This document shows positions 1,637 to 40,063 of a stretch of 64,000 nucleotides of DNA, in pieces. Source of the stretch: Paludibacteraceae bacterium (GTDB taxonomy: Bacteria; Bacteroidota; Bacteroidia; Bacteroidales; Paludibacteraceae). Each line of letters starts with the position of its first letter. Positions within the stretch are counted from its first letter, which is position 1. The translations under genes were made by a program, and so were the position numbers. The notes under the pieces are model-generated. The model did no database searches and was not told the origin of the DNA. It saw nothing but the letters and a program-made list of their open reading frames with translations. The stretch covers positions 41,740 through 105,739 of the forward strand of contig JAXDTJ010000018.1 in assembly GCA_034090015.1 (NCBI GenBank). Reading direction: 5' to 3'.

Positions 1637-2164
1637 ATGTCCATCAAAGAAAAGATATACTCTTTTATCGCTCGCAGGCAGCCTCAGCGGGAAGCCAAGT
1701 GGCCGCACTGGGAGAGCGTGAAGCATGTGCTGGTGTTGTATGAAAGCGACTTTGTGGAGAAGAATCCTGCCATTCGCACGATTCGCACCGAGTTACAAAA
1801 ACATCATATCGATGCCGTCTTTTGGGGTTATGTGCCGAAGAAAGAGGTGCAGTCGGCAGTGTTACCACAAAGCCGTATCGTGGGGATGAAGGATTTTACT
1901 ATTCTTGGTTTCCCGTGCAAGGAATTGGTACAGGATTTGCAGCAACAAGAATATGACATAGTGATAGACCTCAACCAAAGCAATGCCCTGCCCTTGCGCT
2001 ACCTATGCCTGCTGGCGGATGCCGGCTTCAAAAGCGGCATGGCGTTTGAAGATGGCATACCCTCACCGCGCGACCTGCTAATCAACACGCAGCCGCAGGA
2101 GACACCCGAGTTCCTTTTCCAACAGATACTTCACTATTTAATCAATATACAAAGCAATGACTAA
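1637..2164 (+). CDS. hypothetical protein (175 aa)
   Basis: The ORF starts 3 nt after the ligA stop and overlaps the dapA ATG by 8 nt. I cannot name a motif. The call rests on coding-like composition and operon position only. Confidence 0.55.
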   Translation: MSIKEKIYSFIARRQPQREAKWPHWESVKHVLVLYESDFVEKNPAIRTIRTELQKHHIDAVFWGYVPKKEVQSAVLPQSRIVGMKDFTILGFPCKELVQDLQQQEYDIVIDLNQSNALPLRYLCLLADAGFKSGMAFEDGIPSPRDLLINTQPQETPEFLFQQILHYLINIQSND

Positions 2165-3074
2165 CCCCTCTCAACATTCAACGCTCAACGCTCAACCTTT
2201 GCTACCCTCTTTGTGTGGTTTAGGTACCGCCCTTATCACGCCTTTCCTACCCGATAAAACGGTAGATTTCAAAGCCCTTGGCACCCTGATAGAGCACCAG
2301 ATTGCAGCGGGAGTGGATTATATTGTGGTCTTCGGCACTACCTCCGAGATGGTTACGCTCAACGAGTTGGAGCGTATCACCGTGCGCGATTTTATTGTTC
2401 GCCGTGTGGCGGGGCGCGTGCCGTTGGTGCTCGGCATTGGCGGTAACTGCACAGAGCATGTCATCTGCGAGATAAAGCAGCAGGCACCCATCCTCACGCA
2501 ACATTTCCGCGCCATCCTCTCCGTCTGCCCTTACTACAACAAACCCAACCAGCAGGGCATGTTCCAACATTTCTGCGCCATCGCAGAAGCCTCGCCGCTG
2601 CCTATCATCTTATATAATGTGCCCGGGCGCACGGGCGTGAACCTGCTGCCGGAGACGGTGGCAAGGCTCTACAAAGCCATGCCGGAGAAGATAGTAGGCA
2701 TCAAGGAGGCAAGCGGGAAACTTGACCAGATAAAAAGCCTGCTGGAGATTATGCCCGAAGAGTTTATGGTGATTTCGGGCGATGATAAGTACGCTTGCGA
2801 ACTGATGGAGGCGGGTGCCAAAGGACTTATCTCCGTGGCAAGCAACGCCTTCCCCGAGGACTTCCGCACCATCGTATATGAGAAAGACGCGGCATTGGCT
2901 GCGCGATACAAGCAACTGGTTCACCTATTGTTTGCCGAAGGTAGCCCCGCAGGCATTAAATGTGTCCTGTCGGAGCAGGGTTTAGTCAGCAACATCCTCC
3001 GCCTCCCCTTAGTCCCCTGCACCCCCCTCCTCCAACAGGAAATCCATGAAGAACTGCTGGCAATTGGCATTTAG
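2157..3074 (+). CDS. dapA: 4-hydroxy-tetrahydrodipicolinate synthase
   Basis: Shows GLGTALITPF, YNVPGRTG and GIKEASG (Schiff-base Lys) motifs of the DapA/NAL family. The first ~18 codons are made of CTCAACG-type repeat words, so an in-frame TTG near 2211 is an alternative start. Confidence 0.9.
   Translation: MTNPSQHSTLNAQPLLPSLCGLGTALITPFLPDKTVDFKALGTLIEHQIAAGVDYIVVFGTTSEMVTLNELERITVRDFIVRRVAGRVPLVLGIGGNCTEHVICEIKQQAPILTQHFRAILSVCPYYNKPNQQGMFQHFCAIAEASPLPIILYNVPGRTGVNLLPETVARLYKAMPEKIVGIKEASGKLDQIKSLLEIMPEEFMVISGDDKYACELMEAGAKGLISVASNAFPEDFRTIVYEKDAALAARYKQLVHLLFAEGSPAGIKCVLSEQGLVSNILRLPLVPCTPLLQQEIHEELLAIGI
2168..2197. repeat. CTCAAC(G/A)-word tract inside the dapA 5' end
   Basis: CTCTCAACATTCAACGCTCAACGCTCAACC, related to the CTCAACT arrays at 62984 and 63646. 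Confidence 0.6.
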
Positions 3075-3146: not shown

Positions 3147-5159
3147 GATGATGCCGGCTTGGTAGGCGGCGAGGAGGTGTTGGAGGTTAGTTATCTGCTG
3201 TTGGAGTTCTTTTCCGCGGTCGGTGTCGCGCACACGGATACGGTGGCGGCTGAAGTCCTCGAGCAGGGTGCGGTTGTGGATGTCGCTGCCGGATAGGATA
3301 GCCTGCTCGCGGCTCTCAAACGACTCATGCTCCACGAGTTGGATTCCGTGGCTGTTGTAGATAAGCGTGTAGCCCGCTATGCCCGTCTTCTCTTGGTAGG
3401 GCTTGCTGAATCCGCCGTCTATCACAAACCGCTTGCCCTCGGCGCGGATAGGGGTCTCGCCCTTGATGGTGCGCACGGGGATATGCCCATTGATGATACG
3501 CCCCGTCTCGGGGTCGAGCCCGAACTCGCGCAGTATCTGCTCGCATATATCGCGGCGGTTTGCCAGTTCGTAGTAGGCTCCTTTCTGCTCTTTCCACAGC
3601 GCTTCATCGTCAATGAAATAGCGTTCGAAAGTGGTCATCTTGTCTTTGTTGTAGAGCGGCGAGTGTGCTCCCTGCCAGAGGTAGAGCATATAGTCCAGCG
3701 CGTTGTCTTTCTCGGAGCCCGTACCGTAGTAGGCGGTGCGCACCACTTCGTCTATGCGCTCCATCAGCGCCCGTCCGCGCACCTGTTCGCCGCAGACATC
3801 CACCGTGGTGAACGACCCGTCGGCGTTCAGTGGGATGGCGGCATGGTAGAGCAGGAAGCCGTTGCGGACAAGGAAAAGCGAGCCATGCTGGTAGAGTCGC
3901 TTCAGGTCGCGCTGCATCTTCTCCGACTTGCGGAACGAGCGCGCCAGTTGCACCATCAGTTCCTCCTCCTCCGCGGAGAGCGCGTAGGGGTGCTTCGCAT
4001 TGATGGTAGGCAGGTTGCGGTCGGTGAGCGGGTAGGTGGCACCCTGTATGCGGATGGTGCCCGCGGCGAGGTCAATCTTATCCAGCAGCAAACGGTCGTC
4101 CATCTCCCACTCGGGATGGCGGAGGATGGTCTGTCCCTCCAACTTAAACTGTATGATAGCCATCGCCTTGTGCATCTTCGCCATGAGTTGTGCGGAGCGC
4201 GTCAGGCGCGGGTTGTTCTCGAAGTCTTTCGTCTGGAAGACGGTGCAAGGGTCGTTGCCGTAGGTCTCCATAGCGAAGTTCGCCAGCGGCAGGAGGTTGA
4301 TACCGTAGCCTTCCTCCAGTGTCTCGATGTTCGCGTAACGGATAGACACGCGGAGCACGGTGGCGATGAGGGCGAGGTTGCCCGCCATAGCGCCCATCCA
4401 CTCGATGTCGTGGTTGCCCCACTGGATGTCGTAGTCGCGCACCCACGAGAGTGTGTCCATAATTTGGCTCGCTCCCGGTCCGCGGTCGAAGATGTCGCCC
4501 ACGATATGCAGCGTGTCGATGGTCAGGCTGTGGATGAGATAGGAGATGGCGATTATGAGTTGCTCGGCGCAGCCCACCTCCACAATGGCGTCGATGATAG
4601 CGTTGTAGTAGGCGGTGCGGTCGTGCTCTATGCTCGACTCGTGAAGCAACTCGTCGATGACGTAGGCGTAGTCCTGCGGCAGCAGTTTGCGCACTTTCGA
4701 GCGGCTGTATTTGATGGTAACCGCTCGCGCTACGAGCACCACTTGGTGCAACCGCCTGCGATACCACTCGTCCATCGTGAACGTGCCCATGCCTTCGTCC
4801 AACTCTCTCCCTTGTAGGGAGGGTAGGGGAGCGTCCTCCTCCAAACTCCGGCGTACCAGTTCAATACGCTCCTCGGGGTAGTAGGTGAGGGCGCAGAGGG
4901 CGCGTTTCTCCGTCTCCGAGAGGGTAAGCCCGTAGATGTCGTCCACCTTGCGGCGGATAACGCCCGAAGCGTTCTTGATGATATGCACAAACGCACCGCT
5001 CTCGCCGTGCAGGTCGCTCACGATATGCTCCGTGCCTTTGGGCAGCGAGATGATGGCTTTCAGGTTGATTAGTTCGGTTACAACCGCCTTGCGCGTGGGA
5101 AACTTCTCGCTCAGCAGGCGCAGGTAACGCTCATCGTTTTTCAGTTCTTCCAAACTCAT
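3132..5159 (-). CDS. fbp: fructose-1,6-bisphosphatase class 3
   Basis: N-terminal LINLKAIISLPKGTEHIVSDLHGE, plus GDIFDRGP and WGNHD metallophosphoesterase motifs. The 675-aa size is typical of Fbp/YydE-type FBPase. Confidence 0.9.
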   Translation of the reverse strand: MSLEELKNDERYLRLLSEKFPTRKAVVTELINLKAIISLPKGTEHIVSDLHGESGAFVHIIKNASGVIRRKVDDIYGLTLSETEKRALCALTYYPEERIELVRRSLEEDAPLPSLQGRELDEGMGTFTMDEWYRRRLHQVVLVARAVTIKYSRSKVRKLLPQDYAYVIDELLHESSIEHDRTAYYNAIIDAIVEVGCAEQLIIAISYLIHSLTIDTLHIVGDIFDRGPGASQIMDTLSWVRDYDIQWGNHDIEWMGAMAGNLALIATVLRVSIRYANIETLEEGYGINLLPLANFAMETYGNDPCTVFQTKDFENNPRLTRSAQLMAKMHKAMAIIQFKLEGQTILRHPEWEMDDRLLLDKIDLAAGTIRIQGATYPLTDRNLPTINAKHPYALSAEEEELMVQLARSFRKSEKMQRDLKRLYQHGSLFLVRNGFLLYHAAIPLNADGSFTTVDVCGEQVRGRALMERIDEVVRTAYYGTGSEKDNALDYMLYLWQGAHSPLYNKDKMTTFERYFIDDEALWKEQKGAYYELANRRDICEQILREFGLDPETGRIINGHIPVRTIKGETPIRAEGKRFVIDGGFSKPYQEKTGIAGYTLIYNSHGIQLVEHESFESREQAILSGSDIHNRTLLEDFSRHRIRVRDTDRGKELQQQITNLQHLLAAYQAGIIKEKS
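4799..4837. repeat. GC-rich palindromic element copy inside fbp
   Basis: CCAACTCTCTCCCTTGTAGGGAGGGTAGGGGAGCGTCCT matches 38672-38710 with 3 mismatches. Confidence 0.8.
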
Positions 5160-5277: not shown

Positions 5278-5326
5278 AACGCCTAACAAACAATCAAACA
5301 ATTATATCTATTTCTATCTCGTTCTT

Positions 5327-7654
5327 TTATCTCACCACAAAACGCATCGTCTCTCCTTCTGCTACTACTATATACATGCCTTGCGGTAGGTTCATAGTGC
5401 TCATCTCCGTAGCGTTGCCATCGCCTATCGAAACGCCGCTCACGGTGTACAAATGCAGCAATTTGCCTTCGGGGTTGAGTATTGCCGAGCCGTTGAAGGA
5501 GATAGTGGTGGCAGTAGCGTCTTTGACAGCTGTTTCCGGTTCATCTTCCTCTTCCTCCGAGTATAGATTGATATAGAAGAGGTTATAAGAGCCTTTCTTG
5601 GTCAGTTCATGGCTGCCGGTGGCGATATCGTACATAATCACGCTGTTTGCAGCGGTTACTACCACGCCGTCCACTTTGATATTTGCGCTCGTTTCTGTAG
5701 ATGCAAAGCCGAGGTAGAGCGTCATATCTTTCGTTGTCGTGAACTTGACAGACGTAGAGGATTCTATTTTCAAACACTCTGTATAAGTAGTGCCGTTTGG
5801 AGCTGTAAACGACCCCTTGGAATTGCTATAATTTCCTGAAATGGTATAGAAACTATTGCTTGGCGTGAGACCCGTGAAATGGCACTCATACTCGCCCGTG
5901 GAAGTCCCGGGTATAACGGGGTCTGTCGGGTCTGTGGGATCAGTGGGGTCAGTCGGTTCTGTGGGCTCCGTCGGGTCGGTCGGCTCATCGCCGCCACCGG
6001 TGCCGCTGCCGGTTTCTTCGCCGCCAACAATACCTATCAGTGTGGTGGTGTAGTTATCTATCTTATTCCGCAGCGCGTCAATCACTTCGTAGTTGGTGTC
6101 CTCCGTAGCATCGTTGAACGTATATTGGAAGTCGCCGTGCTCGCAGCGTCCTGCCCCTTTGTCGCCCGTTACGATGGCGGGCACTTGGTTGGGGTCGTCG
6201 GGCGTGAGGGAGGGCATGAGCGAAGAGTTGGTGTCGAAGTTACTATACGTGTTCCCGCCGAGCAAAGATTTCACACTCGAGGGCACTTGCTCGCTGCGGC
6301 TACTCACCACGTAGGCATCAAAATGCTGATTATTCGTGCTGCTGTAGGGGATGAACTTACACGAACCTGTCATGACATTGTTGTATGCCTTGATGCTGCC
6401 TCCTGCCTCGCCGGAGAATGTCCCTTTCGTCTGGTCGCTGCTGCCTACGCCGCAGTTCACATCCGAGCCTTGCTTCGAGGTCAGCATCGGGTACTTGCAG
6501 TTGCGGAAGTAGTTACACTCCACGAATACATCGGAGCCCGTAGTGGACCCTACACCGTATTTGGCTACGCCATCGAAATAATTGTTGTAGATATGTACGC
6601 TCATCGTGCGGATACGCGGATGGCGCGAGTCGGAGTGGTCGAACCAGTTGTGGTGGTAGGTAATATAGTTCGGTCCGCTCTCGCTCGTCATACCGCACAT
6701 CGTGGACTTGCCTGTGTCCCAGAAATGGCAGTATGAGATAGTAACATGTTTCGAATCACTTTTCACATCTATCGCTCCGTCGCCTTTCTTTTGGTCGCCG
6801 CCTTTATTCGGACCGTAGAACACATCAATGTGGTGAATCCAGATATGGTCGTTGTCGGTATCCAGCGAGATACCATCGTCCAACCCCGTCATCACGCCGA
6901 GGTTGCGCAACTCTACCGAAGCGGAGTTGCGAACCAAGAAACCGAAGCCTTTGATGGTCGCATCTTTGCCCACACCCTCAATAGTGATGTTCAACTCCGA
7001 GTCGGCGGCTTTACCTTTTATCTGCAAACCTTCCGAGGAACTGCTCAGTGCATCCATGTCTCTTGCTTGAATCGTGCCGATGATGCGGAAGACGATAGGC
7101 GTCTTGTCCTGCCCTTTTTGATAGGCGTTGATGATGGCTTGCATACCCGTGCAGGTCGTCTTGGTGCCGTTAGAACCCGTAACAACATCTGTCGAAATAG
7201 TCTTCGCGGTGTTCTTCGTTACGTAGAACACTTTCGCGCCGGCTTTCAGCGTACCGTCGTTGTTGTACGCGCCCACGCCCTTTGAATAGTTGAAGTGTGC
7301 AAACCCGTTGCGGTCGTGGGCTGCTACGGTCAGCGTGCCGGTTTCTGTGGCTTCCGTTGTAACCTCATTACCGCTGTTGTCCACGGGCACAATCTTCAAT
7401 TGGTAGTTGCCCGCCTTCAGTCCGAGGGCATCTACGCGCATATACGAACCGTAGTTACGCAGCAGCATAGCGTCCAACTGCGTATAGGTGCCACCCGCAG
7501 GGCGGACATACGCATGGTAGTTAGTGTATGACCCCGGTGCCCATTCCGCATAAGCGGTCTCCAGCCATCCGGCAGACTTAGTGATTTCTACGGCAGCCTG
7601 TGAGCTTACCGTGAGGGCTGCAAAAGCAGCAAGAAAGAGTGTACGAATCTTCAT
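5327..7654 (-). CDS. secreted pectate lyase (PL1-like) with T9SS C-terminal sorting domain
   Basis: Signal peptide MKIRTLFLAAFAALTVSSQA. Beta-helix lyase motifs WIHHIDVF, GDGAIDVKSDSKHVTISYCHF and HHNWFDHSDSRHPRIR. A (PTD/PTE)n linker is present. The C-terminus ending LPQGMYIVVAEGETMRFVVR looks like a T9SS type-A CTD. Confidence 0.8.
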   Translation of the reverse strand: MKIRTLFLAAFAALTVSSQAAVEITKSAGWLETAYAEWAPGSYTNYHAYVRPAGGTYTQLDAMLLRNYGSYMRVDALGLKAGNYQLKIVPVDNSGNEVTTEATETGTLTVAAHDRNGFAHFNYSKGVGAYNNDGTLKAGAKVFYVTKNTAKTISTDVVTGSNGTKTTCTGMQAIINAYQKGQDKTPIVFRIIGTIQARDMDALSSSSEGLQIKGKAADSELNITIEGVGKDATIKGFGFLVRNSASVELRNLGVMTGLDDGISLDTDNDHIWIHHIDVFYGPNKGGDQKKGDGAIDVKSDSKHVTISYCHFWDTGKSTMCGMTSESGPNYITYHHNWFDHSDSRHPRIRTMSVHIYNNYFDGVAKYGVGSTTGSDVFVECNYFRNCKYPMLTSKQGSDVNCGVGSSDQTKGTFSGEAGGSIKAYNNVMTGSCKFIPYSSTNNQHFDAYVVSSRSEQVPSSVKSLLGGNTYSNFDTNSSLMPSLTPDDPNQVPAIVTGDKGAGRCEHGDFQYTFNDATEDTNYEVIDALRNKIDNYTTTLIGIVGGEETGSGTGGGDEPTDPTEPTEPTDPTDPTDPTDPVIPGTSTGEYECHFTGLTPSNSFYTISGNYSNSKGSFTAPNGTTYTECLKIESSTSVKFTTTKDMTLYLGFASTETSANIKVDGVVVTAANSVIMYDIATGSHELTKKGSYNLFYINLYSEEEEDEPETAVKDATATTISFNGSAILNPEGKLLHLYTVSGVSIGDGNATEMSTMNLPQGMYIVVAEGETMRFVVR

Positions 7655-7775: not shown

Positions 7776-7797
7776 CAACCGTTTTTTACCCAACACA

Positions 7798-7836
7798 AAT
7801 CGTAATTCGTAAATTCGTAAATCGTAAATCGTAAAT
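7798..7836. repeat. CGTAA(A/T)T word tract in 5' leader
   Basis: AATCGTAATTCGTAAATTCGTAAATCGTAAATCGTAAAT. Confidence 0.85.
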
Positions 7837-11583: not shown

Positions 11584-11671
11584 AATTAAGAATTATGAAT
11601 TAAGAATTAAGAGCGGCTTACGCCAACGGGATAACCACTGCCTCTTAATTCATAATTCTTAATTCTTAATT
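11584..11671. repeat. TTAAGAATTATGAA-word hairpin between rpmF and rluB
   Basis: Left arm AATTAAGAATTATGAATTAAGAATTAAGAG, 29-nt GC-rich loop, right arm CTCTTAATTCATAATTCTTAATTCTTAATT. Confidence 0.85.
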
Positions 11672-11683
11672 CTCAACATTCAC

Positions 11684-12505: not shown

Positions 12506-12535
12506 CGGGCGTTTTAAGCATTTTTTGGGCAAAAA

Positions 12536-12562
12536 ATCGTAATTCGTAAATCGTAAATCATT
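12536..12562. repeat. CGTAA(A/T)T word tract in glucokinase leader
   Basis: AAATCGTAATTCGTAAATCGTAAATC. Confidence 0.85.
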
Positions 12563-17640: not shown

Positions 17641-17880
17641 GCGACTGTCAGACCGCTGTCCGACTGATTTACTGGGGACGCGGGCGGCTCGCCCGCGGGC
17701 CCGTCGGGCCCGAACAGCGGGTGTGGGCCATGTGATATCCTCCACGGCTTGCGCCTTGCCCGGGGGCGAGACGCCCGCGTCCCCAGTAAATCAGTCGTTC
17801 AGCGCAGCGGTCGGACAATGAAATGGTCCCGATAAATCGGGATGCAAGCATCTGACAGCGAAGCGGTCAGAAACATCTGT
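17641..17880. repeat. composite element: CAGACCGC-word palindrome with nested GC-rich MITE-like insert
   Basis: Perfect 25-bp inverted repeat GACTGATTTACTGGGGACGCGGGCG (17662-17686 / 17772-17796), flanked by GACCGC and GCGGTC words. Confidence 0.8.
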
Positions 17881-19535: not shown

Positions 19536-19692
19536 CGACCGCAGACGCTAAAAGACCTTCTATCGACTGCAAGACCGCGCTTTGCACTGTAAGACTGATA
19601 TACAATTAAATACTGAATAAGTCGGACAGTGCACTGTCGTTCAGCGATAGCGGTCGGATAGTGCAACGGTCGTTCAGCGATAGCGGTCGTAA
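19536..19692. repeat. ~155-bp CAGACCGC-word palindrome after lipoprotein gene
   Basis: GACCGC words on the left, GCGGTC words on the right, centre GACTGATATAC...CTGAATAAGTC. Confidence 0.8.
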
Positions 19693-21292: not shown

Positions 21293-21340
21293 CCACTGGG
21301 GACGCCTCACTGGGGACGCCCCGACAGTGTCGCGGGCGGA
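21293..21340. repeat. ACTGGGGACGC words after the PreA-like gene stop
   Basis: CACTGGGGACGCCTCACTGGGGACGCCCCGACAGTGTCGCGGGCGG, related to 17668 and 63388. Confidence 0.7.
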
Positions 21341-21829: not shown

Positions 21830-22023
21830 GACCGCAGCAAGACCGTCTGACGACTGTCAGACCGCGCTTCGCGCTGAAAGACAAAAGATCGCTCACTTCG
21901 TTCGCTGTCAGACTGATATAGTCTCAAATGCTGAATCAGTCTTTCAGCGAAGCGGTCGTACAGTGAAACGGTCAGACAGCGAAGCGGTCGTTCAGCGAAA
22001 GCGGTCTAACAGCACAGCGGTCA
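21830..22023. repeat. ~190-bp CAGACCGC-word palindrome after second lipoprotein gene
   Basis: Same architecture and centre (GACTGATATAG...CTGAATCAGTC) as 19536-19692. Confidence 0.8.
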
Positions 22024-26200: not shown

Positions 26201-29200
26201 TTCAGCGGCAGGATACTCTACGAACGCTCCACCATACCGGTGAAGGGCGTGCATTTCTTGGTGAACGGCATACTCGCCACCGATGCCACAGGCAACCCCG
26301 TCGAGACCAACGAGAGCGGTAACTTCCAGTTTGAATTGCCCAAAGCACCGATACGGGTGCAGGCTGTGAAAGACGGACACTGCTTTGCCAACGATGGATA
26401 CCTGATTCTCAACGGAGACACCCTCTTCCAACCTACCGACAACATCGATGCCATTCGCTTCTACGACCGAACGAAGGTACGCCTCATCGGGCGTATTGCC
26501 GGCGGTAACGACCAAGGACTACTCCCCTTAGGCTTCGGACTCAGCCGTAACAACCTCGGCGACCATATCTGCATGGTGCTGGAGTTAGAGGGCGACAACG
26601 CCGCGCAGATAGTCTTCGACCCCTTGGACAAGACCCTCAACCGCCTTGACACCACTATCGTCCATGCCATAGACACCACCCAACATACCGACATTTCCTT
26701 GCAGAGCAAGCGGATAATGATTTACCCCGACCCGGCTTCCGGAGAGTTCTTTGCCGACCTCTTCCCCGTGAAGTACAAAGTAACCCAACTGACCGCACAA
26801 GGCTATAGCACGCTCACCAACGAGAAGACCGCCATGCAGGTCATAGACCTCACCAACAAACTCGACAGCCAATACACCTATTATACTGACACCATTCAAG
26901 GAGGTGCGGTCTCCAGGCCGCACCAAGAGAACTATGACGAAACCATGGTGCGGTTAGGAGACCGCACCTCCTTGGCCTTCCACGACACCTTCCGACATAT
27001 CTACCATAGCCCCATCACCGTAACGCCCGTACAGAGCCTTTACGGCATGGAGGTGGGCTATTTCGGCGTCGAGCGTATCGCTGTGCAACGATGGGACGGA
27101 GAGTCGGAATCCCAGTCGGTAGCACTTGCCAAAGAAGACGGCACCTATGAATACCTCTTCGGAAAACCCATCTTCACCGAAGGCAAATACACCTTCAATA
27201 TCTACGCGCACGAGGACTATTACTATAATGGCGACCGCAACCTCGGCAAGCACGACCGCGTGATGCTCCACGAAGGCGAGGTGAAAATCTATAACGGCAT
27301 GCACTCCAACACAGAAGTGCTGACCGGGACGCTCGATAAAGACGGTGTCTGCCGCAACATGGTCCTCCGCGCGGATTATCCCACCTACACGCGCGTGGAC
27401 GAAGACGCTGCGCGAAACATACAGGTTACTGTAACCTACGAGCGTGAATCCCATACTACCGAGCCTTTGCGGGTGCTGGTATTCGCCGACCGACGAGAGG
27501 GAACAGAGGCAATATCCTCCACCACGGCAGACATCACACTCTACGATATCCTGCGCGACCCGCCCGGCTCCGGCAGTTTCGCTACACTCAGCGCAGGAGC
27601 ATCATACTCCGCATCGAAAACATGGGCGTTATCCGTCAAAGCGGGTGTCACACTCGAGTTCGAAAAAGGAGTAAAATATGCCGGATTTGTGGGAGCGGTT
27701 ACTGCCGTCCCGGGACTGCTATCAGCGCAAAACTATAACATAAACACAACCACACCATTCAGCATTCCGCTGGTGTATAATTATTCCATCAACAAAGATT
27801 ATAGTTATTCCTATTCCACCACCGAGACCATACGAACGGGTAGTGATGCCTACCATGTAGGTGCAAAAGCGGACATATTCATGGGGGCAGTGGAGAATCT
27901 CTATATATCTACTTGCCACGGTATGGCTGTGCTGGACTCGCTGACCTATCTATCGATGGCTGCGCAGAAGGAGAACGGCACCATGCGGCATATCGCTACC
28001 GCACGAAATCTACAAGGTGAACTACGCCACCTCGTGGTAGCGCCTAAACTCACCTTAGACATGGTGCAGGATGCCACTTTCTGCTACACCCAAGAGCACA
28101 TCCTCACCACCGTGATTCCCAAACTGGTAGCCCAACGCAATGCCTTGGTGCTTTGCGTGGACTCAGCGGCGGCAAGAGCAAAAGCCAATCAAGAGAAAAA
28201 GCGTATCTACTACACTACGATGAGCCCTGATAGTGCCGACTTCGCAATAACACGCGGGAAAGGGTACGACTTTGTTGACCCCGTAAATAATACCGATAAT
28301 ACACCCGAGGCGGATAAAGTAGCCGGTATCAACCGTGCCATCCTCGCTTGGACCAACCTGATAAAACAAAACGAGAAGGAGAAGGTCAATGCACAATATA
28401 CCACCGACAAAAAAACATATTCCGTGGCAGGTGGCTCTACGCTTACCTATTCCGAAACGGTAACTTACGGCAGCAAATATAACGAAATACCCTTCAACTT
28501 GGGCGGTTCTGCCGGAGCAAGCAATCTGAGCAATCTATGGGGAAACGCCATCAACAAAACCATACAGACGCTTCTACAGGTAGGTGGAAAGGCTGATTCT
28601 ATCACCATTGAGAGCGAAGCGCCGGGCAGCAAGTTCTCCTTCAGTTTGAAACCCATTGCCAATATAAGCACCCAACCAACTTACGCCGCCTCCGAACAGA
28701 AGTCGCGCACCTATGGTTATACGCTATCCCCAGACCGGTTCGGATATATGGATGTGCAAGTAATGCGCATGAAAGACACGATAAGCGATTTCTACCAAAA
28801 CGCGGAGGATACCCTTGCGTTAACAGGAGAGAAAGCCAATGGTAAACTGCAAAGTTACAGCAGTTTCATCTTCCGCCAGTTGGCAGGTGCCAGCCGCTGC
28901 CCGTGGGAGGATGCCGACTCCACACTCTTCTACCAGCCCGGCACGCCGCTGAGCATTGCCACCGCGCGCTTGGAAAACCCGCAGATAACCATCGCCCAAC
29001 GCGAGATAAGTAATGTGCCTGCCGACCAACGCGCCATCTTCCAAATCGCCCTCAACAACGAGCAGACCTACTACACGGGCATAGGTGCAGCCACCCTGCC
29101 CTTTGAACTGTCGGTTATGCCGGGTAGCAACCCCAACGGACTCAAGATAACCATAGACGGCCAACCCCTCACCTCGGATCCTTTATCCATCACTCTCCCG

Positions 29201-34071: not shown

Positions 34072-34336
34072 AAATTTACGAATTACGATTTACGAATTAC
34101 GATTTTCCGTTAAAGACCATTAAAAGACCATTAAAAGTTTAAGTTATACTCCGTTAATTGCCGTTAATTATTCGTTAATTTTTTTGCCTCCATTAAAGAC
34201 CATTAAAGGTTCATTAAAGGCAAAGTTTTAATGGTTCTTTAATGGGCTTTAACGGAGAAAACAAAAAGAAATTAATGAATAATTAACGGTCATTAACGGA
34301 GAACGAAAATAATTAACGGGCATTAACGGAAAACGA
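34072..34336. repeat. word-repeat leader of polyamine operon (CGTAAAT, CCATTAAAG, CCGTTAAT words) with nested inverted repeats
   Basis: 34150-34182 is a near-perfect complement of 34270-34301. The inner pair is 34190-34220 / 34226-34247. Confidence 0.8.
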
Positions 34337-34340: not shown

Positions 34341-35228
34341 ATGGAGAATTTTGCCGGATTAAGCGGGCGTTGGGCGGACGAAAAGACCGCGCGGATAGTG
34401 GTGTTGCCTGTGCCTTATGACAAGACGAGTTCGTGGGTACACGGTGCGGAGAAGGGACCGGAAGCCTTCTTGGAGGCGAGCGTGCAGTTGGAGTGGCTGG
34501 ACACGGAGACGCGGACGGAGGTCTATCGTCAGGGTATCCATACCGCCGCGCCCGTAACGGAAGACCGCACGCCGGCGTTGCTATGCGAGGCGGTGGAAGA
34601 ACGCATGGGGGCACTATGGGACGCGGGGAAGTTCCCCTGCATGATAGGCGGCAACCACACGGTGTCTATCGGTGCTTGCCGCGCGGCGGCGAAGCGTTTT
34701 GAGGGGCTGACGGTGCTGCAATTAGACGCACACAGCGACCTGCGACCCGAATACGAGGGGTCGGAGTTGAACCACGCCTGCATCATGAAAGAGGCGCAGA
34801 AAGTGGCGAAGACGGTGCAGGTGGGGATCCGCAGCCAGTGCGTAGAAGAGGCGGAGAACGCTGCGAAGAGCACGATTATATGGGCGCGCGAGATATGGGA
34901 AGACGAGACCTTCGGGCAGCGACCTGCCTCGGCGAGCGAGAGTTGGGCGTGGGAGAAGCGGGTATATGATGCGCTGACGGAGAATGTGTATCTGACCATC
35001 GACCTCGATGTGTTCGACCCTGCTTATCTGCCCTCTACGGGTACGCCGGAGCCCGGGGGCATGGGCTACTATCAGGTGCTGCACCTGCTGCGACCTGTGT
35101 TCGAGCGATACAACGTGGTGGGGTTTGATATCGTGGAACTCTGTCCGAGCCCGACCCGCCAAGCGCATGCGTCGCAGTACCTCGCCGCACGGCTGGCATA
35201 TCAGTTGATGACATACAAATTTATTTGA
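34341..35228 (+). CDS. speB: agmatinase (arginase/ureohydrolase family)
   Basis: GGNHTVSIG, LDAHSDL and DLDVFDP Mn-binding motifs, in a polyamine gene context. Confidence 0.85.
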   Translation: MENFAGLSGRWADEKTARIVVLPVPYDKTSSWVHGAEKGPEAFLEASVQLEWLDTETRTEVYRQGIHTAAPVTEDRTPALLCEAVEERMGALWDAGKFPCMIGGNHTVSIGACRAAAKRFEGLTVLQLDAHSDLRPEYEGSELNHACIMKEAQKVAKTVQVGIRSQCVEEAENAAKSTIIWAREIWEDETFGQRPASASESWAWEKRVYDALTENVYLTIDLDVFDPAYLPSTGTPEPGGMGYYQVLHLLRPVFERYNVVGFDIVELCPSPTRQAHASQYLAARLAYQLMTYKFI

Positions 35229-35305
35229 CAATTGGACAATTTACAATTTGACAATTATGCGCCGCATGGCTAATTGTAAAATTGTCAATTGTAAAATTGT
35301 AAAAT
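35224..35305. repeat. GACAATTT-word hairpin between speB and nspC
   Basis: Loop TGCGCCGCATGGC. The speB TGA lies inside the first word. Confidence 0.85.
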
Positions 35306-35311
35306 GATACC

Positions 35312-36553
35312 ATGTTTCCCAATCCTTGCTACATAGTGGAAGAGCGGCTTCTGCACCGTAACCTCGCGCTGATAAAGCGCGTGGCGGATGAGACGGGCGT
35401 GGAGATAATCTTGGCATTCAAGGCGTTTGCGCTTTGGAAGACTTTCCCTATCTTCCGTGAGTATATTCAGCATACCACGGCTTCGAGTGTCTATGAGGCG
35501 CGGCTGGCATACGAGCAATTCGGTGCCCCCGCGCACACCTATAGCCCCGCCTACACGGAGGAGAACTTCCCCGAGTTTCTGCGGTATTCGAGCCATATCA
35601 CGTTCAATAGTTTGAGTCAGTGGGAGAGATTTGGAAGGATCCAAGAACCAAGAACCGAGAACCAAGAGGGGAGAGTCTCTTTCGGCATACGTATTAACCC
35701 TGAGTATTCGGAGATAGAGACCTTGCTCTACAATCCTACGGCGCCCGGGTCGCGGTTTGGCGTGCTGGCGGAGCAGTTGGAGACCTATTGCGAGGCGCGT
35801 GGCGGGAGGCTGCCCGAAGGATTGGAGGGCTTTCATTGCCACTGCCATTGCGAGGATGATTCCTACACTTTCGAGCGGACGCTGCAACACATAGAGGCGA
35901 AGTTCGGCAAGTGGTTCCCGCAGTTGCAATGGCTCAACCTCGGCGGCGGGCACCTGATGACCCGCAAGGACTACGATGTGGAGCATCTGATAGGGTTGCT
36001 CAAAGGACTGCGCAGCCGCTATCCGCACCTGAAGATACTGCTTGAGCCCGGCAGCGCGTTTGCTTGGCAGACGGGTGTGCTGACGAGCAAGGTGGTGGAT
36101 ATCGTGGAGAACCACGGTATACGGACGGCAATACTGAACGTGTCGTTTGCCTGCCACATGCCCGACACGCTGGAGATGCCCTATCAACCGGCAGTGAGGG
36201 GAGCAAGACCCACCCCTCCCCTCCCTGAAGCCACCCCACTACGCGTTGCTTGTGGGGACCCCGGAAAGGGAGGGAGTGAAGACCCCCGCGAGGTAGGGAG
36301 TGAAGAGGGGTATCGGTATCGCCTTGGGGGCAATAGTTGTCTGTCGGGGGACTGGATAGGCGATTGGGTGTTTGACCACGAGTTGCAGATTGGGGAGGAG
36401 ATAATCTTTGAGGATATGATTCACTACACCACGGTGAAGACGCACATGTTCAACGGCATTGCTCATCCCTCGCTGGGAATACGCCGCGAAGACGGCACGG
36501 AGGAAGTGCTCCGCACATTTGATTACGAAGATTACTTGAATAGGATGGACTGA
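35312..36553 (+). CDS. nspC: carboxynorspermidine/carboxyspermidine decarboxylase
   Basis: N-terminus PCYIVEERLLHRNLALIK...ILAFKAF (PLP Lys), then LGG.SCLSGD and HYTTVKTHMFNG blocks. It carries two repeat-derived in-frame inserts. Confidence 0.85.
   Translation: MFPNPCYIVEERLLHRNLALIKRVADETGVEIILAFKAFALWKTFPIFREYIQHTTASSVYEARLAYEQFGAPAHTYSPAYTEENFPEFLRYSSHITFNSLSQWERFGRIQEPRTENQEGRVSFGIRINPEYSEIETLLYNPTAPGSRFGVLAEQLETYCEARGGRLPEGLEGFHCHCHCEDDSYTFERTLQHIEAKFGKWFPQLQWLNLGGGHLMTRKDYDVEHLIGLLKGLRSRYPHLKILLEPGSAFAWQTGVLTSKVVDIVENHGIRTAILNVSFACHMPDTLEMPYQPAVRGARPTPPLPEATPLRVACGDPGKGGSEDPREVGSEEGYRYRLGGNSCLSGDWIGDWVFDHELQIGEEIIFEDMIHYTTVKTHMFNGIAHPSLGIRREDGTEEVLRTFDYEDYLNRMD
35637..35671. repeat. 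AAGAACC words in-frame in nspC
   Basis: GGATCCAAGAACCAAGAACCGAGAACCAAGAGGGG. The same word occurs at 32846. Confidence 0.75.
36205..36312. repeat. GC-rich repeat block in-frame in nspC
   Basis: Contains CACCCCACTACGCGTTGCTTGTGGGGACCCCGG, which matches 38593-38630 (CACCCCACTGCGCGTTGCTTGCGGGGACCCCGC). Confidence 0.8.
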
Positions 36554-36560
36554 TATTAAA

Positions 36561-36645
36561 CTTGTAATTTGTAATTTTTAATTTGTAATTTTTAATTGCC
36601 ATTCGGCGAAAATAATTACAAATTAAAAATTAAACATTAAAAATT
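36561..36645. repeat. TGTAATTT-word hairpin between nspC and speA
   Basis: Left arm CTTGTAATTTGTAATTTTTAATTTGTAATTTTTAATT, loop GCCATTCGGCGAAA, complementary right arm. Confidence 0.85.
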
Positions 36646-36647
36646 GC

Positions 36648-38546
36648 ATGAAACGCTGGCATATAAAAGATAGTGCAGAACTGTACAACCTGCAGGGTTG
36701 GGGCGTGAACTATTTCGATATCAACGAGAAAGGGCACATGGTGGTTACCCCCAAGAAAGATGACAATCAGATAGATATCCGCGAACTGATTGACGAGTTG
36801 GCATTGCGCGACATTCAGCCGCCCGTGCTGCTGCGTTTCTCGGATATCATCGAGAACCGTATCGAGCGCATGAACGAATGCTACGAGCATGCCGCGAAAG
36901 AGTACGGCTACAAGGGCGAATGCTTCTTGGTGTATCCTATCAAGGTCAACCAGATGCAGCCCGTGGTGCACGAGATAGTGAGCCACGGCAAGAAGTTCAA
37001 TATCGGGCTGGAGGCAGGCAGTAAGCCGGAGTTGCACGCCGTGATAGCCGTCAATCAGGAGCCCGACTCCATCATCATCTGCAACGGCTACAAAGACGAG
37101 GCGTATATTGAGTTGGCTTTGCTCGCGCAGAAGATGGGCAAGCATATCTATATCGTTGCTGAGAAACTGAACGAGTTGGAACTCATTGCAAAAGTGTCGG
37201 AGCGGCTGGGTGTGCGCCCGAACATCGGCATCCGCATCAAGTTAGCGTCGGTAGGCTCGGGCAAGTGGGAAGAGTCGGGCGGCGATGCGTCGAAGTTCGG
37301 ACTGACCAGCAGCGAGTTGCTGGAAGCCCTCGAGACGCTGGACGCGCACCGGATGCACGACTGTCTGAAACTGATACACTTCCATATCGGCAGCCAAATC
37401 ACCAACATCCGCAACGTGAAGACGGCTATCCGCGAGGCGGCGCAGTACTACGTGCAACTGCACAAATTAGGTTTCCCCGTGGAGTTTGTGGATGCCGGCG
37501 GCGGGCTGGGCGTGGACTACGACGGCACGCGGTCGAGCAACTCAGAGTCGTCGGTCAACTACTCTATCCAAGAGTACGTCAACGATATCATGTACGGGCT
37601 GATAGAGGCGGCGGACAAGAACAACCTGCCGCACCCGAATATCATCACCGAGTCGGGGCGCTCGCTCAGTGCCCACCACACGGTGCTCATCATGGAGGTG
37701 CTGGAGACGGCGCACCTACCCGAGATGCCCGAAGAATGGGAGGTAGGCGAAGGCGACCACCAGTTGGTGAAAGACCTGTACGAGATTTGGGACAACCTCA
37801 CGCAACGGTCTGCGTTGGAGAGTTGGCACGATGCGGAGCAGATACGCGACGAGGTGGTGGAACTGTTCAGCCACGGGCTCATTGACCTGCGCACCCGCGC
37901 ACAGATAGAGAAACTCTATTGGTCGGTAACGCGCGAGATAGCCTCGCTCGCCAACCAGATGCGGCGCGTGCCCGAGGAGTTGGAGAAAGTGAATAAACTA
38001 TTGGCAGACAAGTACTTCTGCAATTTCTCGCTCTTCCAATCCATGCCCGACACATGGGCTATCGACCAAGTGTTCCCCATCATGCCTATCCAACGGCTCG
38101 ATGAGATGCCCGACCGCCATGCGACGATACAAGACATCACCTGCGACTCCGATGGCAAGGTGCAGAAATATGTCTCGGAGGGGACGCTGACGAAATCGCT
38201 GCCCGTGCATTCGTTGCGCAAAGGCGAGCCCTACTACATTGGTGTCTTCCTCGTGGGGGCGTACCAGGAAATCTTGGGAACTATCCACAACCTCTTCGGC
38301 GATGTTACCGCCGTGCATATCGCGATGAAAGACGAGGGCTACTCCATCGAGCAGACCATCGATGGCGAGAGCGTGCAGGATGTGCTGCGCTGGACGGAGT
38401 ACGATGTGAAGAAGATGGTGCGCACGCTGGAGACTTGGGTAACGAAGTCGGTGAAAGCAGGGAAAATCACCCTCGCCGAGGGCAAAGAGTTCCTCTCCAA
38501 CTACCGCTCCGGATTGTACGGATATACCTATTTGGAAAGGGAATAA
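36648..38546 (+). CDS. speA: biosynthetic arginine decarboxylase
   Basis: 632 aa. WGVNYFDINEKGH start, YPIKVNQ PLP-lysine block, HFHIGSQ, and C-terminal GYTYLE. Confidence 0.9.
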   Translation: MKRWHIKDSAELYNLQGWGVNYFDINEKGHMVVTPKKDDNQIDIRELIDELALRDIQPPVLLRFSDIIENRIERMNECYEHAAKEYGYKGECFLVYPIKVNQMQPVVHEIVSHGKKFNIGLEAGSKPELHAVIAVNQEPDSIIICNGYKDEAYIELALLAQKMGKHIYIVAEKLNELELIAKVSERLGVRPNIGIRIKLASVGSGKWEESGGDASKFGLTSSELLEALETLDAHRMHDCLKLIHFHIGSQITNIRNVKTAIREAAQYYVQLHKLGFPVEFVDAGGGLGVDYDGTRSSNSESSVNYSIQEYVNDIMYGLIEAADKNNLPHPNIITESGRSLSAHHTVLIMEVLETAHLPEMPEEWEVGEGDHQLVKDLYEIWDNLTQRSALESWHDAEQIRDEVVELFSHGLIDLRTRAQIEKLYWSVTREIASLANQMRRVPEELEKVNKLLADKYFCNFSLFQSMPDTWAIDQVFPIMPIQRLDEMPDRHATIQDITCDSDGKVQKYVSEGTLTKSLPVHSLRKGEPYYIGVFLVGAYQEILGTIHNLFGDVTAVHIAMKDEGYSIEQTIDGESVQDVLRWTEYDVKKMVRTLETWVTKSVKAGKITLAEGKEFLSNYRSGLYGYTYLERE

Positions 38547-38560
38547 AAGCCCCTGCGAGG

Positions 38561-38710
38561 CCCAGGACCCCCTCCTACTCCCCCTACAAGAGCACCCCAC
38601 TGCGCGTTGCTTGCGGGGACCCCGCGAGGGGGAGAGTATAAAATAACTATTGTATAACTAAAACTAATTTCCCAACTCCCTCCCTTGTAGGGAGGGTTGG
38701 GGAGAGTCCT
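38561..38710. repeat. GC-rich composite palindrome between speA and the dehydrogenase gene
   Basis: CCCCTACAAGAG on the left and CTCCCTTGTAGGGAGGG on the right. It ends at the ATG at 38711. Confidence 0.75.
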
Positions 38711-39964
38711 ATGAATCGAGTATTATTGATTGGCTGTGGAGGTGTAGGCACCGTGGCAGCCCACAAGTTGGCTCAGAATCCCGATGTGTTCGGTGAGATT
38801 TGTATCGCGAGCCGCACCAAGTCGAAATGTGATGCGACGGCGGAGGCTATCCGCGCGAAGCACTACACGAAGAACGGCTTGCAGTCTGTCATCACCACCG
38901 CGCAAGTGGATGCCGACGATGTGGCAGCGCTGGTGGCGCTGATGAAGGAGTACAAGCCCGCACTGTGTATCAACCTTGCACTTCCCTACCAAGACCTGAC
39001 CATCATGGACGCTTGTCTGGAAGCAGGGGTGCACTACATGGACACCGCCAACTACGAGCCGAAAGATGAGGCGCACTTTGAGTATTCATGGCAGTGGGCT
39101 TATCGCGAGCGTTTTGAGAAAGCAGGGCTCTGCGCGCTGCTCGGCTGCGGCTTCGACCCGGGCGTAACCTCCATCTTCACTGCCTATGCGGCGAAGCACT
39201 ACTTCAAGGAGATTCACTACCTCGACATCGTGGACTGCAACGCGGGCAACCATCACAAAGCATTCGCCACCAACTTCAACCCCGAAATCAACATCCGCGA
39301 GATTACCCAAAAGGGACTCTACTGGGAGAACGGCGCTTACCACGAGACGGAGCCGATGGAGATTCACAAGACGCTCCACTATCCGAATATCGGTCCGAAG
39401 GAGAGTTACCTGCTCCACCACGAGGAGATAGAGTCGCTCGTCATCAACTACCCGACCATCAAGCGTGCGCGCTTCTGGATGACCTTCGGACAGCAGTATC
39501 TGAACTACCTCGACGTGATTCAGAACATCGGCATGGCGCGTATCGATGAGATAGAGTACAAAGCGCCGAAAGCCGATGGCACGGGCGATGAAGTGGTGAA
39601 GATAGTGCCCTTGCAGTTCCTGAAAGCCGTGCTGCCGAACCCCAAGGAGTTGGGCGAGAACTACGACGGCGAGACCTCTATCGGTTGCCGTATCCGCGGC
39701 ATCGGCAACGACGGGCAGGAGCACACCTACTATGTCTGGAACAACTGCTCCCACCGTGCTGCTTACGAGGAGACGGGCATGCAGGGCGTCAGTTACACCA
39801 CGGGCGTGCCGGCGATGATTGGCGCGATGATGATGCTCACGGGCAAGTGGCTCCGCGCGGGTGTGCACAACGTGGAAGAGTTCGACCCCGATCCCTTCAT
39901 GGAGATGCTCAACGTCCACGGACTGCCCTGGCACGAGGAGCACGACGGAGATTTGGAACTGTAA
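38711..39964 (+). CDS. carboxynorspermidine/carboxyspermidine dehydrogenase (saccharopine dehydrogenase family)
   Basis: VLLIGCGGVGTVAAHKL Rossmann start, ~415 aa, clustered with nspC/speA/speB. Confidence 0.85.
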   Translation: MNRVLLIGCGGVGTVAAHKLAQNPDVFGEICIASRTKSKCDATAEAIRAKHYTKNGLQSVITTAQVDADDVAALVALMKEYKPALCINLALPYQDLTIMDACLEAGVHYMDTANYEPKDEAHFEYSWQWAYRERFEKAGLCALLGCGFDPGVTSIFTAYAAKHYFKEIHYLDIVDCNAGNHHKAFATNFNPEINIREITQKGLYWENGAYHETEPMEIHKTLHYPNIGPKESYLLHHEEIESLVINYPTIKRARFWMTFGQQYLNYLDVIQNIGMARIDEIEYKAPKADGTGDEVVKIVPLQFLKAVLPNPKELGENYDGETSIGCRIRGIGNDGQEHTYYVWNNCSHRAAYEETGMQGVSYTTGVPAMIGAMMMLTGKWLRAGVHNVEEFDPDPFMEMLNVHGLPWHEEHDGDLEL

Positions 39965-39966
39965 AA

Positions 39967-40063
39967 ACAATTTGAAAGTTAACAATTTGAAAATTTGAAA
40001 ATGACGATGCAGAATTAATCATTTTCAAATTTTCAAATTTACAAATTTACAAATTTTCAAATT
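39967..40063. repeat. TTTGAAAA-word hairpin between dehydrogenase and GT2 genes
   Basis: TTTGAAAATTTGAAAATGA - loop - TCATTTTCAAATTTTCAAA... Confidence 0.85.

Follow-up and report, generated by a model that had tools for sequence, protein, structure and literature searches.

A repeated hairpin-plus-G-tail unit translated within a class 3 fructose-1,6-bisphosphatase of Paludibacteraceae, and its relatives at the ends of DUF559 endonuclease genes

How does a short palindromic sequence come to lie both inside the coding sequence of a metabolic enzyme and immediately ahead of the start codon of another gene? The question is raised by a 64,000-nt stretch of DNA from a Paludibacteraceae bacterium (contig JAXDTJ010000018.1, positions 41,740 to 105,739; the window, meaning this whole stretch), in which a 39-nt sequence within fbp, the gene of a class 3 fructose-1,6-bisphosphatase (FBPase; Fbp), recurs in the spacer between speA and a gene of the saccharopine/carboxynorspermidine dehydrogenase family. 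The 39-mer of fbp is quite probably the solo terminal repeat of a selfish endonuclease cassette that has become fixed as a tolerated loop insertion. The evidence includes (i) the alignment of Fbp with its homologues, (ii) the membership of both 39-mers in a widespread repeat family, and (iii) the position of the units of this family at the ends of DUF559 endonuclease genes.

The two 39-mers and the loop of Fbp

The + strand of the window reads CCAACTCTCTCCCTTGTAGGGAGGGTAGGGGAGCGTCCT at 4799-4837 and CCAACTCCCTCCCTTGTAGGGAGGGTTGGGGAGAGTCCT at 38672-38710. A search of the whole window with up to 3 mismatches returns these 2 sites only (at 3 and 0 mismatches), while 100 shuffles give a chance expectation of 0.00. 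The preliminary description of this locus is thereby borne out as to the positions, the quoted sequences and the three differences between them, and also as to the second copy closing the speA/dehydrogenase spacer, the last base of which directly precedes the ATG at 38711. The hairpin core CCCTCCC/GGGAGGG named in that description holds for the intergenic one, a 13-bp bulged hairpin of -12.3 kcal/mol as DNA and -23.9 as RNA (z -3.0 and -2.4), but not for the fbp copy, in which the left arm is CTCTCCC and leaves one mismatch in the 7-bp core stem; the latter hairpin is weak (DNA -7.9 kcal/mol, z -1.2) and no better than shuffles. A strict hairpin-plus-tail descriptor run over the window finds the 38672-38710 copy alone, and the fbp copy and the long-form copies considered below need mismatch tolerance or a profile.

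The identity of the host gene likewise stands. The fbp open reading frame (ORF) matches PF06874 (FBPase_2) at E 1.5e-273 over profile positions 1-638 of 639, which is full-length, and the window Fbp is identical to a deposited protein of a Paludibacteraceae metagenome-assembled genome (MAG). By contrast, the element is not one of 13 codons, as had been described: the 39-mer is one base out of the fbp frame and takes up 12 whole codons (DAPLPSLQGREL) plus parts of two others. The C-rich strand of the unit is translated as (E)DAPLPSLQGREL(D), residues 109-121, and the peptide encoded by the fbp copy is DAPLPSLQGRELD. The CCAA at the left end of the 39-mer lies outside the consensus of the repeat family, which begins with CTC, and may be host sequence because the TTG codon (the coding-strand complement of CCAA) has a counterpart in the nearest outgroup Fbp. 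The paired change of CCAA/TTGG to CCGG/CTGG between the window and locus L002 is a single event and probably involves host sequence in part.

Homologues of Fbp were sought among 1.8 billion representative proteins. When 22 diverse class 3 FBPases (34-62% identity) are aligned with the window Fbp, all are gapped by ~19-22 residues opposite DAPLPSLQGRELDEGMGTF. Conservation of the 13 residues in unrelated FBPases had been named in advance as grounds for giving up the idea of an insertion, and the segment is found in 0/22 of these representatives. Relatives at 63-72% identity, all from metagenomes, have a loop of other lengths or none; the extension is absent from a 67%-identity relative, and unrelated extensions occupy the loop in others. 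Since the 22 representatives lack the segment and the 63-72% relatives differ in length, the segment is, from these comparisons, an insertion and no conserved part of the enzyme, and the alignments thus support the claim that a short palindromic repeat was inserted in frame in fbp. The site is a loop that varies in length and is particular to this lineage, flanked by helices 95-107 and 129-148. The 72%-identity relative reads ...SLYERIEGLNEGIGEFAMEDWY at this loop; EGMGTFTMD is therefore host loop, with the unit accounting for about 7-10 extra residues. A metagenome scan for fbp relatives yields 13 loci, too few for covariation, which served to date the loop.

The AlphaFold model of Fbp is confident overall (predicted local distance difference test, pLDDT, 90.3; predicted template modelling score, pTM, 0.90). 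The unit-encoded residues 110-121 are predicted as coil at pLDDT <50 between two confident helices, and in this model the unit would occupy a surface position compatible with the fold.

Of the 120 listed Fbp homologues at 92% identity or more, only one lacks the unit, as would be expected of a functional loop that is selected for regulation or interaction, with the likeness to the intergenic copy arising by chance or by copying from fbp. The residues PS and GRE, which vary little, point the same way. This explanation is extremely improbable given that a 36/39 match has zero chance expectation, that the sequence belongs to a family found in hundreds of unrelated contexts, and that the segment is missing from all other FBPases aligned. 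The modelled disorder also speaks against a functional loop, as does the rate of change: across 119 homologues at 92% or more, the insert is 69.5% identical to that of the window Fbp and all other residues 93.9%, such that the insert evolves about five times faster than the remainder of the protein. A 97%-identical Fbp, moreover, swaps the hairpin for an unrelated stretch of 39 nt.

The gene of this 97%-identical protein (P0010; L001 2001-4034) carries ACCTCCAATGCGCAACCCTCCGCTCTCAACCCTTCTGCC, encoding the peptide TSNAQPSALNPSA, in place of the hairpin. It retains the outer GACGCT of the unit and one CAACCCTCC arm, without the G-arm, and the replacement resembles the INAQISNLPNLE loop of the 67%-identical relative (L131). 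The allele may have arisen by rearrangement or recombination.

A repeat family and its DUF559 cassettes

Both window 39-mers match the pattern of a repeat family, the unit of which is ~34 nt long and reads CTCCCTCCC(C), loop, (G)GGGAGGG, YT, GGGG, W, GGGG, Y. The loop is 4-5 nt, and the tail of two G-tracts nearly repeats the G-arm. The pattern CTCYCTCCCNNNNNGGGAGGGNWGGGG (C-arm CTCYCTCCC, 5-nt loop window, G-arm GGGAGGG, then N W GGGG) was scanned over one genome per GTDB species (2 x 596 Gb); with 19 fixed and 2 two-fold positions, ~1 chance match is expected by the estimate made here. At least 118 stretches match. Of those listed, ~105 are from Bacteroidota (Bacteroidaceae, Prevotellaceae, Paludibacteraceae, Tannerella, Marinilabiliaceae, Prolixibacteraceae, Flavobacterium, Cytophagales, Chitinophagaceae, Saprospiraceae and Sphingobacteriales) and the remainder from Ignavibacteria, Oceanithermus, a few Proteobacteria, Desulfobacterales and Chloroflexus, with several genomes holding three or four listed loci. 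Among 123 distinct instances, the eight positions past the enforced pattern (28-35) are conserved too (consensus W G G G G/T Y T T), and on the left conservation breaks off abruptly; the repeat family is real and sharp-edged. A profile of the 123 members (nhmmer) recovers the fbp copy at E 3e-8 and the 38672-38710 copy at E 2e-11. The window tails, AGAGTCCT and AGCGTCCT, differ from the Paludibacteraceae-type tail AGGGTCCT (L022, L076) by one and two substitutions. The pattern is also present on 20 IMG/VR viral contigs (L155-L174) with the same conserved tail, and phages are possible vehicles of the units between lineages. No Rfam family matches the window at the gathering threshold, or 36100-38800 at E up to 1.

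The units are common within genes. By crude ORF calling, 58/130 lie inside long ORFs in both orientations; under a strict rule (an open frame of at least 300 codons with at least 40 on each side) 49/126 do, and all six frames are used (12, 12, 10, 7, 6 and 2 units). Host genes confirmed by Pfam are ten in count and include, with domains on both sides of the unit, those of a UvrD-like helicase, ValS (two), IleS, LeuS, an M16 peptidase, a RluA-type pseudouridine synthase, a UDP-GlcNAc 2-epimerase and a protein with a PPDK_N domain (pyruvate phosphate dikinase-type). Fifty-three percent of the units (53%) are free of stop codons in six frames versus 8.6% of random 34-mers from matching loci. The units consist almost wholly of C/T and G/A runs and hence usually lack stop codons in every frame, and they would be tolerated in coding DNA because of this base composition. 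A unit that inserts into a permissive surface loop and whose length is a multiple of three would keep the gene open and simply be translated. By analogy with the Rickettsia palindromic elements (RPE), the units that are in frame in unrelated genes (fbp, nspC and the other hosts) would thus produce translated insertions of a similar kind.

Between genes, the units are placed asymmetrically. The median gap to the next ORF is 16 nt on the tail side versus 106 nt on the other side, and the tail end lies within 10 nt of an ORF boundary in 23/51 cases compared to 2/51 for the other end (sign test p 6e-4). The boundary abutted by the tail is an opposite-strand stop codon or a same-strand ATG. If the units are the outward-facing termini of an element, this would explain why they abut gene ends on the tail side and have extra sequence on the other.

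The preference of the tail for stop and start codons also suits a host function, in which the units serve as regulatory structures (mRNA 3'-end stabilisers or terminators, hairpins of the 5' untranslated region, or a hairpin/G-quadruplex switch) and the fbp copy is accidental. The consensus tail and right arm together make four G-tracts, C(TTCG)G loops are frequent among the units, and the 17-mer GGGAGGGTTGGGGTGGG, which is the G-arm plus tail in many copies, is listed under 'VEGF' as a characterised parallel G-quadruplex former (PMC3384297). A GGAG, in addition, stands 6 nt upstream of the dehydrogenase ATG. Host regulation is nonetheless distinctly unlikely as the origin of the units, which occur in both orientations and all six frames within essential genes, are missing from the speA-dehydrogenase junction in strains with a 99% identical dehydrogenase, and serve as the inverted ends of endonuclease cassettes. 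The G-runs number only three (GGG, GGG, GGGG) in either window copy compared to four in the family consensus, the hairpins are not followed by a T-run, and Rfam has no matching family; a sigma-70 promoter and intrinsic terminator scan of 38300-38900 does not flag the units. The ribosomes of Bacteroidia are reported to be blind to Shine-Dalgarno sequences (PMC13000453).

Two narrower proposals for the window copies were dropped. A G-quadruplex was set aside on account of the three G-tracts, where the canonical motif requires four, and a Shine-Dalgarno role for the GGAG was set aside on the ribosome blindness just cited. Side effects of the hairpins on regulation, after stop codons or before a start codon, are possible; an unstructured leader is reported to matter in Bacteroidota (PMC6847099).

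A DUF559 gene lies between the units at some loci. Nine DUF559 loci were inspected, three among the pattern matches and six via protein searches, and in 7/9, from Bacteroidota, Cyanobacteriota and Deinococcota, the endonuclease gene lies between units arranged as inverted terminal repeats. The units thus physically bracket DUF559 genes. The three loci among the pattern matches encode PF04480 domains (E 1e-35, 9e-32 and 3e-32) in frame in IleS (L104), LeuS (L119) and UDP-GlcNAc 2-epimerase (L042), with a unit at one end of the cassette, a second unit-like hairpin at the other, and both tails outward. The cassettes are roughly 0.5 kb, and the host aminoacyl-tRNA synthetase (aaRS) sequence resumes exactly at the unit tails in the nested cases. 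The junctions of the IleS and LeuS fusions are unit-encoded peptides; no intein domains are found in these fusions, in which Pfam sees only aaRS domains, DUF559 and MTES_1575.

The remaining cassettes extend this arrangement to spacers, plasmids and a split gene. In Prevotella (L122), the DUF559 gene is located between etfA and an acyl-CoA dehydrogenase gene and is flanked by near-perfect ~36-nt inverted repeats (GCCTCACCCCC..CCCCTCTCC GAAT GGAGAGGGGAG), which begin 2 nt past the stop and finish 10 nt ahead of the ATG. Plasmid pAQ6 of Picosynechococcus PCC 7002 (L175) has arrays of a TTCCCCC-loop-GGGGG-YWR-GGGGGC unit on either side of the DUF559 ORF, and pDEIPR03 of Deinococcus proteolyticus (L176) has near-perfect ~36-nt repeats with tails outward. 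In the complete genome of the cultured species Draconibacterium halophilum (L150; CP048409.1, 1158950-1160166), a DUF559 cassette splits valS into two ORFs. The same valS site, before TIATTRPET, is occupied by the full cassette in L150 and by ORF-less doublets in L093 and L056 (Cytophagales), and the ileS site after HYPF is occupied in both L104 and P0273. Among PDB entries, 3hrl (E 9e-23) and, weakly, the 'Mobile intron protein' 3r3p (E 0.0015) match the DUF559 domain. According to Steczkiewicz et al., Vsr, DUF559, 3hrl and 3r3p share a single clade, the annotation of which lists a group I intron homing endonuclease among its members.

Several details of these loci are of note in their own right. 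The two valS parts of L150 share a frame, and stops of the cassette in that frame give rise to the two called ORFs, leaving a fractured essential gene without inteins. Some database DUF559 proteins begin or end in unit-encoded peptides or in aaRS fragments at the ileS site: the DUF559 homologue P0273 opens with part of IleS (…WFDSGAMPYAQWHYPFE) at the site of the L104 insertion, and P0271 runs from DUF559 through a unit into an apparent 3' part of ileS read in a different frame, suggesting that ileS is either split or out of frame in the genome concerned.

Units therefore occur in four contexts, namely (i) solo, (ii) as inverted doublets with tails outward, (iii) as long forms, the loop of which contains a second small palindrome, and (iv) as the termini of DUF559 cassettes. 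We infer that the DUF559 nuclease drives the spread of the units and that the solo and doublet copies derive from the cassette but lack its ORF. The nuclease would cut at or near units or empty sites, and copying through repair would then spread the element. For fbp, the insertion would have taken place in an ancestor of the Paludibacteraceae lineage, into a loop of class 3 FBPase that was already variable in length, and the copy of today would be a decaying passenger, a disordered and fast-evolving loop of 12-13 residues, in which the hairpin is weakened and no contribution to the enzyme is evident. More generally, the data raise the proposal, tentative enough that doubt slightly prevails, of a class of selfish DNA that crosses phyla, in which a DUF559 gene lies between hairpin/G-tail inverted repeats and the cassette and its solo and doublet derivatives lacking the ORF colonise gene junctions and, being stop-free in every frame, also the coding sequence of essential genes. 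The loop insertions of FBPase and NspC, the endonuclease domains nested in aminoacyl-tRNA synthetases and the split valS might be products of this class, an attribution that falls just short of probable.

Several points weigh against this account. A DUF559 ORF is found in only 3 of the at least 118 listed matches, none is seen near the 20 viral copies or in the window, and 2/9 DUF559 loci lack inverted units (L151 has direct repeats with one unit-like hairpin and L153 has other repeats). No target-site duplication is visible at L122 or L176, and no transposition or homing event is observed. The nearest outgroup of fbp (72% identity) is just 7 residues shorter and differs in the neighbouring residues, so that it does not make a clean empty/filled pair with the window gene. 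The stem-encoded residues of Fbp (PS and GRE) vary less among the homologues than those of the loop and tail, which could reflect some selection on the hairpin, although most of the sequences are near-identical and the independent events few. The CTCYCTCCCNNNNNGGGAGGGNWGGGG scan, finally, picks one sequence variant, and per-genome copy number and taxonomic spread are not read from it.

As to how the units are mobilised, a RAYT-type or other enzyme, or units that act as landing pads for the cassette, are alternatives. In the fullest form of the former, the units are a family of the repetitive extragenic palindrome (REP)/REPIN type moved by a RAYT (an IS200/IS605-like HUH tyrosine transposase) or another transposase, and the DUF559 genes are passengers or later neighbours. 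Short imperfect palindromes, inverted doublets with spacers of 39-130 nt and the many copies right after stop codons all suit such a family, a gene between inverted copies is the RAYT arrangement too, and DUF559 is scarce among the listed matches. That the units are REPs is nevertheless unlikely. The gene between inverted units was DUF559 each time, in three phyla (no screen was aimed at Y1/RAYT genes), and aaRS sequence resumes at the unit tails in the nested cases. The units have no conserved GTAG head, the flank at position 0 being variable and the GTAG of the window lying in the variable loop, and about 40% of them are intragenic, unlike REPs.

Other units of the window and strain turnover

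The repeat extends further than the preliminary description saw, from a pair of 39-mers to a phylum-wide family, a doublet in the speA-dehydrogenase spacer, a long form in nspC and the terminal repeats of DUF559 genes. The units of the window and the genes that bear or adjoin them are given in Table 1.

Table 1. Units of the repeat family in the window and their host or neighbouring genes (window coordinates)
Feature	Position	Strand	Remarks
fbp, class 3 fructose-1,6-bisphosphatase, 675 aa	3132..5159	-	PF06874 FBPase_2
Solo hairpin-plus-G-tail unit in fbp	4799..4837	+	family core 4803-4837; G-rich strand antisense to fbp
nspC, carboxynorspermidine decarboxylase, 413 aa	35312..36553	+	second window gene with an in-frame element
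Long-form unit in nspC	36207..36300	-	in frame; residues 299-328 (RPTPPLPEATPLRVACGDPGKGGSEDPREV)
speA, arginine decarboxylase	36648..38546	+	stop 19 nt before C-tail of left unit; 3 nt in strain L177
Left unit of spacer doublet, long form	38566..38636	-	+ strand reads C-tail, C-arm, TACAA, 37-nt insert, G-arm
AT-rich 35-nt doublet interior	38637..38671	.	between left and right units
Right unit of spacer doublet, intact	38672..38710	+	G-tail outward; last base directly before dehydrogenase ATG
Saccharopine/carboxynorspermidine dehydrogenase-family gene	38711..39964	+	ATG adjoins right unit

The unit in nspC is a long form, made of a C-tail, a C-arm, a 37-nt inner palindrome, a G-arm and a 24-nt tandem duplication of the G-arm region. 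The family profile gives weak matches inside nspC, and the nspC segment aligns with the left unit of the spacer (38566-38636) at 78%. Compared to PDB 36gy_A, the closest solved carboxynorspermidine decarboxylase (E 1.8e-178), NspC has a clean 30-residue insertion here. The segment is thus an insertion as well, as judged by alignment, and provides the second in-frame example in the window. Two smaller extra segments of NspC relative to 36gy_A lie near residues 108-111 and 158-164. The 37-nt palindrome GAGCACCCCACTGCGCGTTGCTTGCGGGGACCCCGCG and a close variant are found precisely in the loops of two units (38590-38626 and 36230-36266). This insert may represent a second mini-element aimed at unit loops or a mark of a long-form subfamily.

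The speA-dehydrogenase spacer differs between close relatives. In strain L177, the dehydrogenase of which is 99% identical, the doublet is clean: a 34-nt left unit, a 36-nt interior and an identical 39-mer before the ATG. Relative to L177, the window has a 16-nt insert after the speA stop and the 37-nt insert in the loop of the left unit. Two contigs with a 99% identical dehydrogenase have unit-free spacers of unrelated repeats, and a syntenic relative with an 87% identical dehydrogenase has a unit-free, AT-rich spacer of 33 nt. The doublet is thus a recent, strain-variable acquisition, and the presence or absence of units at the level of strains shows that turnover is ongoing. The AT-rich interior of the doublet is either the interior of an element or a remnant of the ancestral spacer. 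An empty spacer (L143) and the filled spacers of the window and L177 are too diverged to align for a target-site duplication.

The doublet also affects annotation. Gene callers that read through the unit give an N-terminally extended dehydrogenase (...PTPSLVGRVGESPMNRV...), and the called ORF of P0392 (L177 232-1596) runs upstream through the whole doublet (MTHPVPPYKGREYKNNYCLTKTNFPTPSLVGRVGESPMNRV…). The extension is an annotation artefact, and stop-free units will cause such artefacts widely.

Terminal inverted repeats occur as doublets in the window/L177 spacer, in L024 and at eight more loci, and the inverted doublets have spacers of 39-130 nt. In L024, a Bacteroidaceae MAG (JAZRJU01), doublets of ~110 nt (5300-5460 and 7100-7300) with a conserved interior (…GTTGTAACCA beside the unit) are in frame in the genes of an M16 peptidase and a RluA-type synthase, 1.9 kb apart. 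The interior flank recurs at L005, L057, L107, L116 and L121.

Known repeat systems and the arrays of the window

In behaviour, the family is closest to the RPE. These are repeated palindromes that are in frame in unrelated housekeeping genes and translated (Ogata et al. 2000; reviewed in PMC10969869). The units here share with them translated extra segments at positions compatible with the fold, along with intergenic copies. By contrast, the RPE are ~150 bp, confined to Rickettsia and encode a conserved peptide in one frame per family, whereas the units here are ~34 nt and use all six frames. The latter also reach 39-110 nt as long forms and doublets, range across Bacteroidota and beyond, have a G-tract tail and flank an endonuclease gene. 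The units lack likeness to RPE sequences, having an unrelated composition and a length of 34-39 nt, a distinction drawn from the description of the RPE and not from alignment.

In architecture, the nearest systems are REP/REPIN-RAYT and the Vsr-like cassettes. REPs are typically species-specific. Like REP/REPIN, the units are short imperfect palindromes, single or in inverted doublets, that lie at gene ends after stop codons, and their inverted copies flank the gene of a presumed mobilising enzyme. Unlike REP/REPIN, the gene flanked at the loci inspected encodes a PD-(D/E)XK Vsr-like nuclease (PF04480) and not an HUH tyrosine transposase, the conserved GTAG head is wanting, many copies are intragenic, and one sequence variant is shared across the families of a phylum.

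Dassa et al. 2009 (PMC2677866) describe genes, chiefly of phage, that are fractured by free-standing homing endonuclease genes of the Vsr-like type, beside which hairpins are found. The resemblance includes a Vsr-fold endonuclease ORF inside conserved essential genes with hairpins beside it; the Draconibacterium valS split in two ORFs recalls the intein-less SbcD-like example (PMC2677866), and the DUF559 domain has weak sequence similarity to I-Bth0305I (PDB 3r3p). While the published fractured-gene cases are single-site and mostly accompanied by split inteins or group I introns (PMC2677866), neither inteins nor introns are present here, the ORF often forms an in-frame fusion with its host (IleS, LeuS and the epimerase), the terminal repeats are near-perfect over ~36 nt, and ORF-less repeats are dispersed and multicopy. 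The solo and doublet units also resemble miniature inverted-repeat transposable elements (MITE) in being short, non-coding and multicopy with terminal inverted repeats, and look like internally deleted derivatives of a gene-carrying element. They differ from MITEs in that a parent element with a DDE transposase did not turn up, L122 and L176 show no target-site duplication, and the terminal repeat is itself a hairpin that is also found alone. Since the units show no match to RPE in sequence or length, no GTAG head, no restriction to extragenic DNA and no intein or intron, the family would, by these analogies, be a member of none of the systems.

Literature searches for the family sequence, DUF559, Bacteroidetes repeats or MITEs and Vsr-like homing endonucleases, in a corpus without most subscription journals, found no description of the family, and none linking DUF559 to terminal hairpin repeats or in-frame nesting. 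Within that same corpus, the cross-phylum class of DUF559/hairpin elements may be previously undescribed, which is put forward with some reserve. If the link to DUF559 is true, a biological role would be gained for DUF559 ('endonuclease domain-containing protein'), a large family of obscure function, and complete genomes such as that of Draconibacterium halophilum would offer a tractable system in which to study how a PD-(D/E)XK nuclease moves hairpin-ended DNA and how nested or splitting insertions are tolerated by essential enzymes. Many proline/glycine-rich loop insertions, spurious small ORFs and N-terminal extensions in Bacteroidota annotations would be explained, and the family would be a second and much broader case, after Rickettsia, of repeat DNA written into proteins. 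As for the window itself, the insertions of FBPase and NspC are probably passengers and not catalytic features, and the spacers of the organism change between strains whose flanking genes are 99% identical.

Other repeats fill the spacers of the window. Nearly every spacer holds tandem arrays of 7-16-nt units (AATTAAG, ATTTGACA, AAATCGT, CTCAACN and others), usually two arrays in inverted orientation that form a long AT-rich hairpin, and the unit sequence differs per spacer. The arrays are found at 2154-2209, 7797-7836, 11584-11673, 12534-12559, 30209-30279, 34074-34336, 35221-35320, 36559-36648, 39966-40063, 41015-41129, 56314-56367, 62975-63030 and 63614-63750. Those of loci L147 and L148, in which the flanking genes are 99% identical, differ from the arrays of the window. 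The predicted N-terminus of a dapA-like ORF (2157..3074), MTNPSQHSTLNAQPLLPS, is encoded by CTCAACN heptamers (2157-2209); the true start is probably further downstream, or else the repeats are translated. Another GC-rich repeated palindrome, ACTGGGGACGCGGGCGKCTCGCCCGCGG, is present at 17654-17804, 21294-21320 and 63390-63417, and 16-nt tandem arrays of CAGCGAAGCGGTCAGA lie beside this palindrome at 19621-19690, 21945-22023 and 57672-57730. A third repeated palindrome, CAAGGAGGTGCGGTCTCCAGGCCGCACCA, occurs with an inverted partner in two distant places (26897-26974 and 62932-62961).

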